A stretch of 47,159 nt of DNA from Candidatus Enterousia sp. Lineage in GTDB: Bacteria > Pseudomonadota > Alphaproteobacteria > Rs-D84. Of the stretch, positions 19,327-28,302 are shown one piece after another. The stretch covers positions 1 through 47,159 of the forward strand of contig JAZSAG010000062.1 in the NCBI GenBank assembly GCA_045601765.1, written 5' to 3'. The position numbers were made by a program, and so were the translations under genes. Each line of letters starts with the position of its first letter. Within the stretch, counting starts at the first letter, position 1. Under the pieces are notes generated by a model that searched no databases, was not told where the DNA came from, and was given only the letters and a program-made list of their open reading frames with translations.

Positions 19327-19358
19327 TGTATATACAGTGTATATACAGTGTATATACA
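19327..19358. repeat. Three palindromic TGTATATACA boxes at 11-bp period
   Basis: TGTATATACA at 19327, 19338 and 19349, separated by single G. Confidence 0.9.
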
Positions 19359-19539
19359 AACCGTGAAAAACTGCCGAAAAATCCGAATCGTTGTCAAAAA
19401 GGAAATGTTTAAAAATTGTTTAATATTTGGTTGTAAACCGAAATATATCTTATAAATTATCTGACGTATCCAAAACAGATTGAGAAACAAAAATAATCAA
19501 TCAAAACCGGGGCCGGGTTACCAAAAAAATGATAACGTT

Positions 19540-19731
19540 GGTCTGTGAAAATGGGTGCGGGCTTTTGTGGGTGACTAATTCATAAGGGTCTGTGTTCATA
19601 AAATGGGTGCGGGCTTTTGTGGGTGACTAATTCATAAAGGTCTGTGTTCATAAGATGGATGCGGGCTTTTGTGGGTGAATAATTCATAAAGGTCTGTGTT
19701 CATAAGATGGGTGCGAAAACTTTGTGGGTGG
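19540..19731. repeat. Tandem array of ~3.7 copies of a 52-bp unit upstream of dnaA
   Basis: Unit GGTCTGTGTTCATAA(A/G)ATGGGTGCGGGCTTTTGTGGGTGA(C/A)TAATTCATAAA starts at 19540 (5-bp shorter copy), 19587, 19639 and 19691. Confidence 0.92.
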
Positions 19732-19959
19732 TTCTTAGGTTTGTGTATGGGGTCGGGAAAGGCGACATCATAAAACAAAAATAAGAATTGATGTTCATAA
19801 GGGTTTCGGTCGCCGCAGAGAGGGATGAAAAAGTAGGGCAAATAAAAGGGCTGTGATTCCAAGGCAAACATGGAAAAATGGCATTTTAGGCGGGTGGCTT
19901 TTGTAACCTTTGTGCGATTGGCAGGAAACTCTTTCAAGGGAAGGAAAGGAGAAAACGAC

Positions 19960-21237
19960 ATGCAGACAGTGGCAAAAATACAGATGACCGATTTGGAAAA
20001 TATCAAGGGGGCCATTGCCGCAAAAATTGATTCTGCAAGTTTTACTTCTTGGATTGCGCCACTGAATTTCGAAATTGTTGATAATACATTGGTATTGGGT
20101 GCACAAAATCAATTCTCGGCTGATTTTATTGGCAGTGTACATGGCGGTGTTTTGGCAGAAGTGGCCGCTGGGTTTGGATTGGGGGTACGTATTGCTGTGC
20201 GTGGTGCAAATGCGCATGTGGCACAAAATATTGCAAATGATAACCAGGCACAAGTTTATGCGCCGGCCCCAGAAAAAAAGCAATCTGTCGCATTTGATTC
20301 TTTTGTTGTGACAGACGAAAATTTATTTGTGGTATCGGCATGTAAAAAAATAGCGGCGGGTTTGGTTTCTTTTTCACCGCTGTTTATTTATGGTGCGTCT
20401 GGCTGTGGCAAGACATTGTTAACAGATTGCATTGCAGGCGCGGCAGATGGCAATGTTGTAAAAATGACAGGTGCACAATTTGTTTCTGAATTTACACGCA
20501 GTTTAAAAGATCATAATATTTTCGCGTTCAAAGATTTTTGTCGTAATTGTGATACATTTATTCTGGATGATGTTCAGGCGTTGTCTGGCAAAAAGGCATC
20601 AACCGAAGAATTTATGCAACTGATTATTGATTTGCGGGTTGCGGGTAAAAATATTGTTTTAACAGCAAATGCCGCCCCAAACAATTTGACAGGTTTTGAC
20701 AGATGTGCGCAATCTTTGTTGGCGTCTGGTTTGGTCGCAGATGTTGCCGCGCCAAATATGCATGTGAAATCTGTGATGTTGGCGCGTGCCGGTGTGGCAA
20801 GTGATGTTGCATCTGTAATTGCGGGGCGTATTGCAAGCAACGGTCATTTGGTTGCAGGTGTTGCCACAAAAATTCAGGCGTACAAGGAACTGATGGGTGT
20901 GGCGGTGGATATGAATGTTGCGCAACGTTTGTTGGCAGACACATTACAGAAATCGAAAACACCGGCAACAATGGTTCGTGAAATGTGCGAAAAATTGGGT
21001 GTGTCGTATGATGCGGTATGTGGTGCGGGACGCAGTCGTTCATTGGTTTTGGCACGTCAGATTATGATGGTTGTGTTAAAAAATGCGACGGCACTGTCTT
21101 TGAATGAAATTGGTAATTATGTTGGTGGCCGTGATCATGCGACAGTGTTATATGCAATTAAACAAATTGAAAAACAGCAAGGTTCTGATTTGGTATTGTC
21201 TGCCCAGATTCAACAGTTAATAAATGAATGTAAATAA
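19960..21237 (+). CDS. dnaA: Chromosomal replication initiator DnaA (divergent AAA+ domain)
   Basis: Domain I FTSWIAPL, FDSFVV..EN, PLFIYGASGCGKT, FILDDVQ, domain IV RSRSLVLARQIMM...SLNEIGNYVGGRDHATVLYA; SD AAGGAG before ATG 19960. Confidence 0.9.
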   Translation: MQTVAKIQMTDLENIKGAIAAKIDSASFTSWIAPLNFEIVDNTLVLGAQNQFSADFIGSVHGGVLAEVAAGFGLGVRIAVRGANAHVAQNIANDNQAQVYAPAPEKKQSVAFDSFVVTDENLFVVSACKKIAAGLVSFSPLFIYGASGCGKTLLTDCIAGAADGNVVKMTGAQFVSEFTRSLKDHNIFAFKDFCRNCDTFILDDVQALSGKKASTEEFMQLIIDLRVAGKNIVLTANAAPNNLTGFDRCAQSLLASGLVADVAAPNMHVKSVMLARAGVASDVASVIAGRIASNGHLVAGVATKIQAYKELMGVAVDMNVAQRLLADTLQKSKTPATMVREMCEKLGVSYDAVCGAGRSRSLVLARQIMMVVLKNATALSLNEIGNYVGGRDHATVLYAIKQIEKQQGSDLVLSAQIQQLINECK

Positions 21238-21328
21238 AAATCGCCCGTTTGGGCTTTTTTTGTACTTGGAAGATATGTGAATTTATGATAAAATTATATC
21301 AATAAATCTAAAATATAGGATGGAGATT

Positions 21329-22876
21329 ATGAAAAAGTTTTTATTTGCATCTATTTTGTTGTCGGTGTTTTGTTGTACAAATGTTCATGCTGCGTCTACA
21401 GACGATATAATGAATGCGTGTTATGCGACCCGTAAGTGTGGTGCCAAAGGTCATATTCAGACAATGACTGTGATTCCGTTTACCGCTGGTGGTGCCGTGG
21501 CAGGTGCTGTTGGAGGAATGGGGTTAGGGACACTTGTTCCTTGGGCTGCGGGACCTGGTGTTGGTTTTGTTCTTGGTGGTGCTGCTGGTGGTTATGGTGG
21601 TTACTTGGTTGGTAATCAATTGGGTGGTTATCTGGCAAAGTCATATAATGCAAATGAATATCTTTATTTTGATGATGATACATGTTTGGAATGTGATACT
21701 TATCAAATGGGCGAACATTATGAGTGCCCAAATGGCACGATTGCTTCGAATGGTTCTTATTTTTATAGATGTCGTACAGAAACATTTGGCGATTCATGGG
21801 AAGAATATAGACCTTTGCCATGTAGAAACAGTCCAATTCAAGACACGTCGGTAAAGGGTGCAATGTATGAAATCAAAGCGACAGTAGATAAGAGAGTAAA
21901 TACCGGTGTTTATGTATATAGTGGTGATATGTGCTTGTATATCACTTGTGGTGATGGTGTGCTTGATAAAAAGACAAATAGTTGTGTACCAAAAGATAAT
22001 GGCGGTGATGATAAAAAGTCTGAATGTGCTGAGTATATATCTGATTTTAATTTGTTTCAGCAATGTTCGTTCTGTAACAGAGAAAAGGAAAGCGGTGCGT
22101 TTTGGGATTCTAAATCTAAGATTTGTCGTTGTATAGGCGAAGTAAATAAAGACAAAGAATGGAATGCGGAACAGGGCAAGTGCGTTGCAAAAGTAAATGA
22201 TAATGACCTGCAGAAATGTTTGAATTCGCGTACAACCGCCGAAGGTCGTGCATGTTGCTATCTGCCAGAAAGCGTCGCAAAGTTTGAAAATGGTAAATGT
22301 GTGTGCGCTGGGGGCAAGGCATTTAGAATAGATATGAATGGCCGTGGTATTTGTACAGGTGGAAATAATGGCGAAGGCCAAGATATTATTCCGCCAGCAA
22401 CATGTATGTCGTTGGTCGACAGTTTGATGACAAAGGTTACAACAGAATGCGCGTCTGTGTTGGCTAATGTTACTGTGTTGTCGGATATGTGTACAAATGG
22501 ACAGTTGACATGGTCGTATTGGAATCAACAAAGTCTGGACATAAATATTAAATGTGAAGATGATAAGGCCAGACGTGGTCAAGAAGAAGTCAATAAGCAA
22601 GCAAAGCAAAAACTGATTGCCGCAGGTGAAAAGTTGGATAGCATTATTGCTGGGTTTGAAAAAAGCAGATGGAAAAATGCCGAAGGTGAATTTAATACCG
22701 CACGTTTGGCATCCGATTCGATTGCCGGTGTTGTTCTGGGGACAACAGGTGGATTGGTCACCAGCAGTGTTATGAAAAAGAAACAAGTTGAACAAGGTTT
22801 TGAAGATCTGCAATGCGTCGTCGGTGGCCAGACAGTTGCCGGTTGGGGTGACGAGTTTGTGGTCGGTATCCAATAA
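21329..22876 (+). CDS. Secreted cysteine-rich protein with glycine-zipper segments
   Basis: Signal peptide; long GxxxG region (AGGAVAGAVGG...GGAAGGYGG); many Cys in short C-x-C-type repeats; second hydrophobic segment AGVVLGTTGGLV near the C-terminus. Confidence 0.75.
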   Translation: MKKFLFASILLSVFCCTNVHAASTDDIMNACYATRKCGAKGHIQTMTVIPFTAGGAVAGAVGGMGLGTLVPWAAGPGVGFVLGGAAGGYGGYLVGNQLGGYLAKSYNANEYLYFDDDTCLECDTYQMGEHYECPNGTIASNGSYFYRCRTETFGDSWEEYRPLPCRNSPIQDTSVKGAMYEIKATVDKRVNTGVYVYSGDMCLYITCGDGVLDKKTNSCVPKDNGGDDKKSECAEYISDFNLFQQCSFCNREKESGAFWDSKSKICRCIGEVNKDKEWNAEQGKCVAKVNDNDLQKCLNSRTTAEGRACCYLPESVAKFENGKCVCAGGKAFRIDMNGRGICTGGNNGEGQDIIPPATCMSLVDSLMTKVTTECASVLANVTVLSDMCTNGQLTWSYWNQQSLDINIKCEDDKARRGQEEVNKQAKQKLIAAGEKLDSIIAGFEKSRWKNAEGEFNTARLASDSIAGVVLGTTGGLVTSSVMKKKQVEQGFEDLQCVVGGQTVAGWGDEFVVGIQ

Positions 22877-22930: not shown

Positions 22931-24910
22931 TTATACGAACAGGTCTTTGACGAATTGGGCATGTTCGGTTATGAATTTAAATCTAAATTCTGGTTTTTTG
23001 CCCATCAGTTCAGATACAATTGTACGCGTCTTTTCCGTGTCTTCGGCACCTTCGTCTGTGCGTGGTGGTAATTCAACACGGATTAGGCGACGGGTCTTGG
23101 GGGACATAGTTGTTTCTTTTAACTGATTCGGCATCATTTCACCCAAACCCTTGAAGCGTGAAATCTCGACTTTCTTGTTTTTGTATTTCCCGTTTTTTAA
23201 AGATTCCAGTTCTTCGTCTGTGTCAACGTAAATCGATTCGGTTCCACACGTTAATTTATACAATGGTGGACATGACAAATACAGGTGACCACCATAAATC
23301 AACTGGGGCATGTATTGATAGAAAAACGCCATCAGCAATGATGCAATATGGCTGCCGTCAACGTCGGCATCGGTCATGACAATGATTTTTTCATAACGCA
23401 ATTTATCTTCGTTCCAATCTTTGGCGGTCCCGGCGCCGATAATATCAATCAAGTCATTTAATTCTTTGTTGGCACCGAATCGTTCATCGGAATTAGATAT
23501 AACATTTAAAACCTTGCCACGCAGGGGCATAATTGCCTGGGTTGCGCGGTCACGTGCCTGTTTGGCGGTGCCGCCCGCCGATTCGCCCTCTACAATAAAT
23601 AATTCGGTTCCTGCAATGCCATGCTTGGAACAATCGGCCAATTTTGCAGGCATGCGAACGCGCTTGGTTGGGGTTTTGCGGGCAATCTCTTTGACCTGTT
23701 TGGTTTTTATACGGGCATTGGCCAGGTTTACAACAAATTCCAACAATGCGTTTGCGGTTTTCGGGTCAGATGCCAAAAACATTTCCCATGGATCACGCAG
23801 GGCGTTTTCTGTATAGCGGGCAATTTCAGGGTTAGACAGTTTTTCTTTGGTTTGACCCAAAAATTGAGGTGTTTTATAAAATACAGATACAATCGCCGCA
23901 ACAGAATCAAATACGTCTTCGCCAATAATGGTTGTGGCGGCTTTGTTGTTTACCTTTTCGCCGTATGCCTTAATCCCCTTGGTGATTGCAGATTTAAATC
24001 CTGTTTCATGGGTGCCACCGTCAATGGTTGCGATTGTATTACAATATGATGCGAAAAAGCCGTCATCAGATGCCGCACCGTTTTCATCAGTTAAAAATGT
24101 CAGTGCCCATTCAACACGGCCACTGTCATCTGGGAAATCAACAGCGCCACTGAAAATACGTGGTAAAATACGTGGTTTAGAATCGGTCTTTTCGGCCAAA
24201 AAGTCCGCAACACCATTGGGGTAAAAGAATGTCGTAGTGGCCGGGATATTCATATCTTCGGTCAATAATTCTGGGTTGCAAGACCAATCTATTTTTACAC
24301 CACGTGATAAAAATGCCTTGGCACGGGCCATGCGATATATCTTGACAGGCTTAAACGTTGCGTTTGCACCAAATATTTCATCATCAATGGTAAAGCGAAT
24401 CTTGGTTCCGTGTTTGGTTGTTGGGTCACCACGCTGCATCGAACTGGTCGGCAGACCGCGTGAAAATGTCTGGCGCCAATTATAGCCATCGCGGGAAATG
24501 TTTACAATCATTTCACTGGACAAAGCATTTACAACCGCAGAACCAACACCATGCAGACCACCACTGGTTTTATACACATTATTATTAAACTTACCACCAG
24601 AGTGCAGGGTTGTTAATATAACCTCAAGCGCGGATTTCCCAGGATATTTTGGGTGTTCATCCACAGGAATACCACGGCCGTCGTCGGTAATCTCGATAGT
24701 TTTAGAATCAATTAAATTTACAGTTATCTTTTTCGCAAAACCGGCCACAGCCTCGTCAATAGAGTTGTCCATAATTTCAACCGGTAAATGATGCCAGGCC
24801 TTTTCGTCTGTGCCACCAATGTACATCCCAGGACGCAGGCGAACGGGTTCCAAACCTTCAAGAACCTGGATGTCTGATGCGTCGTATGTTTTTATATTCT
24901 TTTCTGTCAT
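22931..24910 (-). CDS. parE: DNA topoisomerase IV subunit B
   Basis: LEGLEPVRLRPGMYIG, DNSIDEA, SGGLHGVG, VEGESAGGTAKQAR, PLRGKVLN, MTDADVDG, RFKGLGEM; 659 aa without the GyrB insertion. Confidence 0.9.
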   Translation of the reverse strand: MTEKNIKTYDASDIQVLEGLEPVRLRPGMYIGGTDEKAWHHLPVEIMDNSIDEAVAGFAKKITVNLIDSKTIEITDDGRGIPVDEHPKYPGKSALEVILTTLHSGGKFNNNVYKTSGGLHGVGSAVVNALSSEMIVNISRDGYNWRQTFSRGLPTSSMQRGDPTTKHGTKIRFTIDDEIFGANATFKPVKIYRMARAKAFLSRGVKIDWSCNPELLTEDMNIPATTTFFYPNGVADFLAEKTDSKPRILPRIFSGAVDFPDDSGRVEWALTFLTDENGAASDDGFFASYCNTIATIDGGTHETGFKSAITKGIKAYGEKVNNKAATTIIGEDVFDSVAAIVSVFYKTPQFLGQTKEKLSNPEIARYTENALRDPWEMFLASDPKTANALLEFVVNLANARIKTKQVKEIARKTPTKRVRMPAKLADCSKHGIAGTELFIVEGESAGGTAKQARDRATQAIMPLRGKVLNVISNSDERFGANKELNDLIDIIGAGTAKDWNEDKLRYEKIIVMTDADVDGSHIASLLMAFFYQYMPQLIYGGHLYLSCPPLYKLTCGTESIYVDTDEELESLKNGKYKNKKVEISRFKGLGEMMPNQLKETTMSPKTRRLIRVELPPRTDEGAEDTEKTRTIVSELMGKKPEFRFKFITEHAQFVKDLFV

Positions 24911-26883: not shown

Positions 26884-28302
26884 TTATTGATGAAAATGCG
26901 CATATATTTTTTTTGCCGCCGCATTACCCAGGCCGGGGACGTGTGTTAAGGCAGATAAATCTGCGTCTATAATCGCGTGCACAGAACCAAAGTGTTGTAA
27001 TAATGCGCGCTTTCTGGTTGGTCCGATGCCTTCTATTTCATCAAGTACGGATGCCGTCATTTGCTTTGCGCGTACGGATCGATGATACGTGATAACAAAT
27101 CTGTGTGCTTCGTCACGAACGCGACGCAACATCAAGAATAAAGGGCTGTCTTTTGGCAGGTCTGTTGATATGCGACCGTCTGGTAATATAAAGTGTTCGT
27201 CACCGTCACGGACCTCGCCCTTGGTGACACCCATGACAGGTATGTCGCCTGATGCGCGTTTTGCAATGTTCCATTGGGCGATGCCGCCGTCAACAATTAT
27301 TAAATCCAGTTTTGGACCGTGTTCGATTGCGCGTTGTACAAATTCAGACATCATGGCAATGTCATTTCCCGCACGTGTTTTGTCGTGCAGTTTAAAATGT
27401 CTGTATCCTGATTTTTCAAATCCATTATGACCAAATGTTATCATTGCGCCAACAGGACTTTTTCCAAATATATGTGAATTATCAAATACACCGGCTAAAT
27501 TGATTTTTATGTTTAACCATTGTTCTAAATCGGACACGTTTTTTGCCCAATCTAAATCTGATGTATACGCACGTTTTGTGCGTATACCGCGATTTGCAGT
27601 GTGTGTTAATGCGGATATTTTGTCGCGAATAATTGCGGCAGATTCAAAGTCTGTTTGCTGGGCAAAATGTTGCATTTGTTTTGTTAAATCTGAAATGATT
27701 GGTTCGCTGTCGCCGGTTAGAATTTTTCGCGCTGTACGCACGTTTTCTGCGTATTTTTGTTTGTTTGGATAACAACATGGTGCACTGCAACGGCCGATTT
27801 GGTGCAATAAACATGGACGTGATCTGTTGCGCATTTGTGTGTTTGTGCATGTACGCAATTGGCAAACTTTTTGTATTGTTTTTATTGTTTCGTTTAATGC
27901 AGATACAGATGGATAAGGGCCGTAAACGTCACGGCGTTGCGATATTTTTCCGCGAAATTTTAATAAACGTGGATATTCGTCATTGGTTAATGCCAACATA
28001 GGATACATCTTGCCGTCTGTCAGCATGATGTTATATTTTGGTTTTTGGGTTTTTATCAGTTCTTGTTCGCGAATAAGCGCGTCCGATTCGGTTGGAACAG
28101 TTTCCCATTCAATGTGTGAAACCAAAGACCGCATAACCTGTTTGTGTAATTCTAGTTTTGATATATCTTGGTATTGTCTAAGGCGGTTAGAAATGTTTTT
28201 TGCCTTGCCAACGTATAACAGGGTACCGGTCGCATCATACATTTTGTATATGCCAGGGGCGGCAGGTGCATTTTCAATTAAATCAGAAAATTGAATATTC
28301 AT
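26884..28302 (-). CDS. uvrC: Excinuclease ABC subunit C (compact, 472 aa)
   Basis: GIY-YIG (PGIYKM...YVGKAKN), RPCLLHQIGRCSAPC, FDNSH, DLIIVDGG, RDEAHRF, HhH motifs GIGPTR and GLG. Confidence 0.93.
   Translation of the reverse strand: MNIQFSDLIENAPAAPGIYKMYDATGTLLYVGKAKNISNRLRQYQDISKLELHKQVMRSLVSHIEWETVPTESDALIREQELIKTQKPKYNIMLTDGKMYPMLALTNDEYPRLLKFRGKISQRRDVYGPYPSVSALNETIKTIQKVCQLRTCTNTQMRNRSRPCLLHQIGRCSAPCCYPNKQKYAENVRTARKILTGDSEPIISDLTKQMQHFAQQTDFESAAIIRDKISALTHTANRGIRTKRAYTSDLDWAKNVSDLEQWLNIKINLAGVFDNSHIFGKSPVGAMITFGHNGFEKSGYRHFKLHDKTRAGNDIAMMSEFVQRAIEHGPKLDLIIVDGGIAQWNIAKRASGDIPVMGVTKGEVRDGDEHFILPDGRISTDLPKDSPLFLMLRRVRDEAHRFVITYHRSVRAKQMTASVLDEIEGIGPTRKRALLQHFGSVHAIIDADLSALTHVPGLGNAAAKKIYAHFHQ

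Follow-up and report, generated by a model that had tools for sequence, protein, structure and literature searches.

The sole DnaA of Candidatus Enterousia lacks the arginine-finger and sensor II arginines of the initiator's ATP switch

DnaA, the bacterial initiator of replication, has an ATP switch of which sensor II and the arginine finger are regarded as near-universal parts. In the passages of PMC5742627 that deal with E. coli DnaA, R285 (the arginine finger) senses the ATP of the neighbouring protomer, R334 (sensor II) is required for the intrinsic ATPase, for RIDA (regulatory inactivation of DnaA) and for DDAH (hydrolysis of DnaA-ATP that depends on datA) but is not needed to form initiation complexes, and sensor 1 adds to the very tight affinity for ATP and ADP; in those of PMC5319796 the substitution E204Q reduces the ATPase activity. 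The mechanical need for ATP-DnaA filaments in origin opening is openly disputed (excerpts of PMC6727663 and PMC6158602): in vivo, the mutant DnaA(R285A) activates the origin oriC-allADP, and this firing costs the correct timing. We describe here the dnaA gene of a stretch of 47,159 nucleotides (contig JAZSAG010000062.1 of assembly GCA_045601765.1, positions 1 to 47,159; hereafter the window) from Candidatus Enterousia sp., an alphaproteobacterium of the order Rs-D84, all members of which have reduced genomes according to excerpts of PMC12306168. Its DnaA has lost both arginines, and with a confidence a little above even we read it as an initiator that still works but whose switch, based on hydrolysis and the arginine finger, would have been dismantled after the loss of RIDA.

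Compared with the canonical DnaAs of E. coli, B. subtilis and A. aeolicus, the DnaA of this family (Candidatus Enterousia and its sister genera, f1 below) has the same four domains, the same fold, the same Walker A and B motifs, the same residues R227, L290 and K243 and the same domain IV contacts (E. coli numbering, here and below). Like them it is the sole initiator homologue, and DnaB and DciA are present. It differs at E204, D269, R285 and R334 and in the segment H252-N255, by a score below the cut-off of the equivalog model, and by having no HdaA partner. The E. coli pair DnaA(R285A)/oriC-allADP likewise has no arginine finger, binds ATP and fires an origin whose sites need no ATP-specific cooperative binding (excerpts of PMC6158602 and PMC6727663). 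This pair is engineered, whereas the state of the family is natural, fixed and accompanied by the losses of sensor II, E204 and HdaA. The hydrolysis-defective E. coli DnaAs altered at R334 or carrying E204Q have also lost residues of the intrinsic ATPase and RIDA while retaining initiation-complex formation (excerpts of PMC5742627 and PMC5319796). These mutants over-initiate, whereas the family, in which the change goes together with a lack of Hda, evidently tolerates it; its replacement at 334 is a conserved His and not Ala. Some insect endosymbionts, with reduced genomes and a relaxed control of replication initiation, have lost dnaA altogether. The family, in contrast, retains a constrained dnaA, and only the switch residues and Hda are gone.

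The stop-to-stop frame around dnaA is open over 19870-21237 (+), and the start at 19960 was placed just 3' of a AAGGAGAAAAC ribosome-binding site that is kept across the relatives in the genus. Three Pfam domains, all above their cut-offs, are found in the protein: PF11638 DnaA_N (27.9 bits), PF00308 Bac_DnaA (99.9) and PF08299 Bac_DnaA_C (69.1). The match to the DnaA equivalog model TIGR00362 runs from end to end but remains below the cut-off (260 bits vs 343.9). An AlphaFold2 model built from a 75-sequence alignment has a mean predicted local distance difference test (pLDDT) score of 92.2, with disorder confined to the domain II linker (residues 84-96). In a Foldseek search of the PDB ranks 1 to 11 are all DnaA structures, and domain III superposes on that of the B. 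subtilis and T. maritima DnaAs (8bv3, 2z4r) with a template modelling (TM) score of 0.84-0.85 and a root-mean-square deviation of 2.0-2.2 A. Descent makes the protein the DnaA orthologue, but neither its motifs nor its equivalog score are those of a canonical DnaA. The gene, its domains and its motifs lie in the window as follows:

19960..21237, + strand: dnaA coding sequence, 425 amino acids plus stop; sole DnaA homologue of the genome
19960..20199, + strand: domain I, residues 1-80, from Pfam DnaA_N, an AlphaFold2 pLDDT of ~95 and residue tallies
20275..20949, + strand: domain III AAA+ module, residues 106-330, from Pfam Bac_DnaA, Foldseek TM 0.84-0.85 and a ratio of non-synonymous to synonymous rates (dN/dS) of 0.17
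20392..20415, + strand: Walker A GASGCGKT, intact, with K151 equivalent to E. coli K178 (alignments)
20473..20475, + strand: A172, equivalent to E. coli E204, an acidic residue tied to ATPase activity and lost here (alignments)
20560..20577, + strand: Walker B ILDDVQ, intact, with D203 equivalent to E. coli D235 (alignments)
20668..20670, + strand: sensor I N237, equivalent to E. coli D269 (alignments)
20692..20733, + strand: box VII GFDRCAQSLLASGL, with R248 (D280 in E. coli, basic residue gained), C249 (R281) and L253 (R285, arginine finger lost)
20845..20847, + strand: sensor II H296, equivalent to E. coli R334 (alignments)
20962..21234, + strand: domain IV, residues 335-425, from Pfam Bac_DnaA_C, the DnaA-box contact residues and a dN/dS of 0.14

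Motifs were placed by aligning the protein with B. subtilis DnaA (8btg) in HMMER and with E. coli K-12 DnaA in MAFFT, and neither alignment has an indel within them. From E. coli to the window DnaA the sensor I motif LTSDRY becomes LTANAA, box VII GVEDRLKSRFGWGL becomes GFDRCAQSLLASGL, and the sensor II motif SNVRELEG becomes SNGHLVAG. An earlier note on this DNA had listed the Walker A and Walker B motifs as intact, together with the changes D269 to N, R285 to L and R334 to H; both alignments agree on all of these, and no Arg stands at the finger or sensor II position. That note hesitated for R281 between a change to C and a shift by one position: the change (C249) is real and the shift is not. 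The replacement of E204 by A172 is an additional loss, absent from its list. Domains I and IV are retained and the frame is intact, as it had also stated. In domain IV the DnaA-box contacts R399, R407, Q408, D433, H434 and T436 are retained (R399, R407, H434 and T436 each intact in 35/35 covering rows) and T435 is replaced by A, order-wide. F46 of domain I is kept in 36/36 and the equivalents of W6 and E21 are not, while domain III keeps the interface residues R227 and L290 (AID) and K243.

To place these changes we used alignments of 62 DnaAs of the order Rs-D84, then of 59 DnaAs of family f1 (57 distinct). G333 and H334 are present in 59/59 family sequences; the His334 codon varies (30 CAT and 6 CAC in 36 rows) while the residue is invariant. 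Position 285 is always hydrophobic (45 L, 11 V, 2 I and 1 M) and position 280 is R in 56 sequences, H in two and K in one. Position 281 is more diverse: 39 R, 12 H, 3 C, 2 S and one each of K, G and N. Cys281 is limited to the window DnaA and the two relatives nearest to it (85-86% identity), and is thus a real variant. The E204 site carries A, S, G or T in 58 of the 59, whereas K178 and D235 are kept, in 58/58 covering sequences and in 59/59 respectively. At the D269 site N is found in 49/59 family sequences and in 23/26 of the other Rs-D84 DnaAs, i.e. D269N extends across the order and is older than the other substitutions. The earlier note had asked whether its substitutions were fixed across the clade with a dN/dS below 1; H334 and a hydrophobic 285 are, and the dN/dS is given below.

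The same positions were followed outside the family. A phmmer search of 1.84 billion cluster representatives gave 18,331 matches; the best 150 were taken and 140 of them aligned (300-899 amino acids; 10 fragments or giants dropped), 133 lying outside the clade. Among these best matches R334 is present in 133/140, the 7 exceptions all being His and all belonging to the family clade. R334 is thus found in 133/133 non-clade representatives and R285 in 129/133; the E204 site is E or D in 130/140 and the D269 site is D in 126/140. In these alignments the clade-limited residue changes exceed chance. Of the 69 columns with a conservation of 80% or more in the 133 DnaAs outside the clade, the clade retains 38 and loses 19. 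The retained columns include G172, G175, G177, K178, D235, R227, K243, L290, G338, R399, R407, Q408, D433, H434 and T436, and the lost ones E204, D269, R285, R334, E337 and H252-N255, the segment in which dnaA46 carries its mutation (H252Y). These columns show a selective loss: the clade retains the P-loop, D235, the interface and the DNA-reading residues, and what it loses concerns mainly hydrolysis and ATP sensing.

In a DnaA tree from which the switch-residue columns were left out, family f1 forms one clade (support 100) with a very long stem, of 1.69 changes per site, and sits among the other Rs-D84 DnaAs. R285 was lost independently in other lineages of the order (E in g7/g10, C in g5, F in g4, I in G064), as was R334 (K, M, G or A). 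Only family f1 fixes the combination of a hydrophobic 285 with H334 and R280.

The gene is present once and is constrained. In the window's own genome one DnaA match was found, the sole other hit (14.8 bits) being inside ruvB. TIGR00362 matches 99 of 101 genus genomes, 98 of them exactly once, including one 100%-complete and one single-contig genome; none of the matches exceeds the cut-off (best 280.8 vs 343.9), which is exceeded in 10/10 control bacteria with a match. Two matches were found in one genome only, which is 6% contaminated and in which a contig end truncates the second copy. The frame is intact in 59/59 family sequences. The dN/dS is 0.09-0.26 for the closest dnaA pairs, with a median of 0.19 over the 312 finite values of 325 pairs, many of which are near saturation; over 32 pairs with dS at most 1.1, domains I, III and IV have values of 0.27, 0.17 and 0.14 respectively. 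On this evidence dnaA is a single chromosomal initiator gene, functional and under purifying selection.

RIDA, in which hydrolysis is set off by Hda (HdaA), involves this partner, DnaA and the beta clamp; in the family no HdaA was detected. The clamp gene dnaN lies in the window, 11 kb downstream of dnaA. HdaA was searched with NF006571 (E at most 1e-9) in 121 Rs-D84 genomes and in two controls, E. coli and Caulobacter, which were both positive. The model matches 13/121 genomes (12/19 in family f3 and 1/3 in f6) and finds no HdaA in f1 (0/91), f2 (0/4), f4 (0/1) or f5 (0/2). An f3 HdaA used as query (225 amino acids, 154 bits on NF006571) gave no significant match in 5 genus genomes. With a profile of 8 f3 HdaAs the best E value was 0.51, over all open reading frames (ORFs) of at least 70 amino acids in a closed genus genome and the window's genome. 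The matches of TIGR03420 in the genus are DnaA itself, RarA, RuvB and an unassigned ATPase. HdaA-positive genomes with an evaluable DnaA retain both R285 and R334 in 11/11 cases (two were left out: G061, with no dnaA assembled, and G062, with an N-terminal piece only). In the 37 HdaA-negative rows R334 is absent from 29 and present in 8. The tree needs at least five losses of R334 and at least four changes at 285, all of them in HdaA-negative genomes.

Read from these residues and gene contents, the DnaA of the family would still bind ATP, probably less tightly and with a faster nucleotide exchange without D269. It would occupy origin sites and recruit DnaB together with DciA; its assembly would no longer be gated by the contact between R285 and the gamma-phosphate, and self-inactivation by hydrolysis would no longer be used. 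By analogy it could be the natural counterpart of E. coli DnaA(R285A), firing an origin whose sites ignore the difference between ATP and ADP. The loss of HdaA, i.e. of RIDA, would have preceded the dismantling of the switch. More speculatively, the timing of initiation might be set by the amount of DnaA made, which fits the conserved promoter block upstream of dnaA (see below), its GANTC site, the CcrM-like methylase and GcrA. In these bacteria the timing of DNA replication is probably different. An initiator uncoupled from the ATP switch was one of two possibilities raised in the earlier note; given the residue losses, the selection on the gene and the failure to find a second dnaA or an hdaA, it is the best-supported reading and we judge it on balance probable. 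The wider claim, that a whole family of gut Alphaproteobacteria may initiate replication with a DnaA blind to its neighbour's ATP via the arginine finger and not switched off by hydrolysis, is put forward more tentatively and could well fail.

Several points weigh against this uncoupling. The residue states are the source of all that is said here of ATP binding, ATPase activity and assembly. With R227, K243 and L290 retained, nucleotide-dependent head-to-tail assembly may persist, and the invariant His334 could still touch the gamma-phosphate. The sub-cut-off DnaA score alone is not special, since other proteins of this genome also fall under their equivalog cut-offs (ParE/GyrB-like 689 vs 723, CcrM-like 504 vs 830). 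The eight evaluated HdaA-negative genomes that keep R334 do not follow the trend, and the association between HdaA and R334 rests on four independent contrasts, which make a pattern and not a statistical test. The window's genome is 77% complete, and the skew and box scans of two genomes did not locate the origin. Finally the basic residue at 280 looks like a compensation for the loss of R285, a possibility that the earlier note had not considered: among the 129 R285-keeping representatives (of the best 150 of 18,331) position 280 is acidic in 103 and basic in 2, as against R in 56/59 in the family, and K280 is found in two independent Rs-D84 lineages without R285 (g5, g7/g10). In the main rival explanation, a live one though in our view clearly less likely, the switch would be rewired: the arginine finger would have shifted to where the box VII helix begins (R280, aided by R281 where present), with His334 as sensor II. 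In the same explanation ATP-dependent filaments and intrinsic hydrolysis would persist, minus the stimulation by Hda. The charge reversal at 280 speaks for it, as do the conservation of G333-H334 in 59/59 despite synonymous codon change, the retained AID residues R227 and L290 plus K243, and a selection as strong on domain III as on domain IV. But R281, although it shares a helix face with R285, is free to vary in the family, while 280 is five residues away from 285 and, judging by the AlphaFold2 helix 248-254, would lie on another face; G025 combines K280 with R285, so that a basic 280 can precede the loss; and E204 and E337 are lost too.

Two other explanations appear much less probable. DnaA could serve chiefly to regulate transcription by binding DNA, or to recruit the helicase, with the chromosome opened via another route such as R-loops or a plasmid-type Rep, an idea close to the earlier note's proposal that replication is initiated another way; we regard it as quite improbable. 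RNase HI is present in 5/5 genomes, contrary to the loss of rnhA that had been envisaged. DnaB, DciA and the F46 equivalent are retained, and purifying selection bears on the whole of DnaA, domains I and III included. It is true that the unwinding determinants are altered (R285; H252-N255), that no canonical DnaA-box cluster exists in the two genomes scanned, and that a closed relative has a Rep-like gene with five iterons near its GC-skew turning zone; that gene however resembles a mobile element, and neither the window's genome nor 61 genus genomes (a draw without positive control) gave a match to it. No Rep protein common to the whole genus was seen. The proposal of another initiation route is therefore not upheld by these data. 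That the gene is a paralogue or a copy in decay, and a canonical dnaA lies in another place, is barely credible: the intact frames (59/59), the dN/dS of 0.09-0.26 and the single match in 98/101 genus genomes, complete and single-contig ones included and none above the cut-off, outweigh the low TIGR00362 score and the 77% completeness that could be invoked for it, and the only two-match genome is the contaminated one (6%), with its second copy at a contig end. We therefore rejected a second dnaA, a paralogue or decay.

A clade whose sole and constrained DnaA lacks both arginines, E204 and Hda is a natural test case. Within the order R334 losses occur only in HdaA-negative genomes, which offers a comparative handle on the constraint that RIDA exerts on DnaA. 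If the uncoupling is true, the DnaA-ATP filament and the ATP/ADP cycle would not be obligatory for DnaA-dependent initiation, timing could pass entirely to the control of DnaA synthesis, and the family would have maintained, in nature and over a long time, an equivalent of the DnaA(R285A)/oriC-allADP system. A full-text literature search found no description of such a natural DnaA, and the terms "DnaA" and "replication" are absent from the searchable text of PMC12306168, a paper on these genomes.

Two features were located upstream of dnaA:

19327..19457, + strand: genus-conserved non-coding block between dprA and dnaA, from the comparison of the relatives' loci
19548..19715, + strand: tandem array of a 52-bp unit, 3.2 copies, each unit with TGTGGGTGA

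The block contains palindromic TGTATATACA repeats with an 11-bp period, in 3 copies in the window and 1-3 in relatives; at least one copy is found in 30/33 loci examined, and the 10-mer occurs nowhere else in the window's assembled genome. It also holds CGAATCGTTGTCAAAAA, with a GANTC (CcrM-type) site and core 9-mers present in 32/33 loci, and a promoter-like element TTGTAA-N17-TATAAA; the promoter and terminator scan of the region returned 0 sites by the criteria of the tool. The leader gave no Rfam match for a structured RNA (the sole hit being a plant microRNA model, E 0.82), and RNAalifold found no consensus fold over 33 dnaA leaders. This block is probably control DNA of dnaA and not an origin. 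The 52-bp unit, of which a fourth, degenerate copy starts at 19723, is present in 1-2 copies in the closest relatives and in none of most others, and no relative has an array. Within the window's genome the motif TGTGGGTGR clusters solely in this array, and it forms no cluster in the closed relative G075. By this comparison the array is an expansion of the window lineage and not a feature of the genus.

In the window the GC skew is positive on both sides of dnaA, with no sign change. On the closed contig of G075 (958,618 bp) the cumulative skew has its minimum at ~174 kb (mixed zone 120-210 kb) and its maximum at ~690 kb; dnaA, at ~347.5-348.8 kb, is ~170 kb from the minimum. The intergenic spacer upstream of dnaA has no match to TTATCCACA at up to one mismatch in 33 loci (31 with the full 800 bp); the 800-bp upstream stretches contain 4 matches, all of them at a distance above 500 bp upstream, where they fall within the dprA coding sequence or next to it. 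At the same tolerance the window's genome contains 378 TTATCCACA-like boxes, for ~301 expected, and there is no cluster of them, a 600-bp stretch having at most 3, in this genome as in G075. The upstream arrays, which the earlier note had counted as part of a candidate non-canonical initiation system, are therefore probably not oriC, and this reading was rejected: the skew does not change sign, its minimum is far off in G075, the spacer upstream of dnaA has no box, and the array is specific to one lineage.

The other replication and cell-cycle genes searched for, i.e. DnaB (507-518 bits vs a cut-off of 385), DciA, RNase HI, GcrA and a CcrM-like methylase, were each found in 5/5 genomes; the methylase of the window's genome is a full-length match to NF050803, with 504 bits vs a strict cut-off of 830. 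The Rep-like gene of G075, at 214.3-214.8 kb, is a winged-helix ORF of 162 amino acids with five GTACAACA iterons. An excisionase-like ORF stands beside this ORF and its iterons (G075:C1:214000-214900, L118), on the border of the GC-skew turning zone, and the locus looks like an integrated mobile replicon. The window's genome gave no match to the Rep-like ORF, and neither did any of 61 genus genomes (0/61), a draw which did not comprise G075 and so had no positive control; on these searches a plasmid-type Rep was set aside as alternative initiator.

Some neighbouring or unrelated genes also drew attention. Directly downstream of dnaA, 21320-22873 of the window encodes a Cys-rich protein of 518 amino acids with an N-terminal hydrophobic leader and no NCBIfam match. 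Further on, a UvrC homologue of 472 amino acids (26887-28302) matches two separate stretches of the 574-position uvrC model and may be without a segment. A Lon homologue outside the window (G000:C37:4809-6446; ORF of ~590-610 amino acids) matches positions 2-570 of the 795-position Lon model, and the protease domain is apparently absent from that ORF in 5/5 genomes (G000, G041, G042, G075 and G102). The type IIA topoisomerase B subunit encoded at 22934-24910 of the window scores about equally as ParE (688.8 bits) and as GyrB (689 bits), under both cut-offs.

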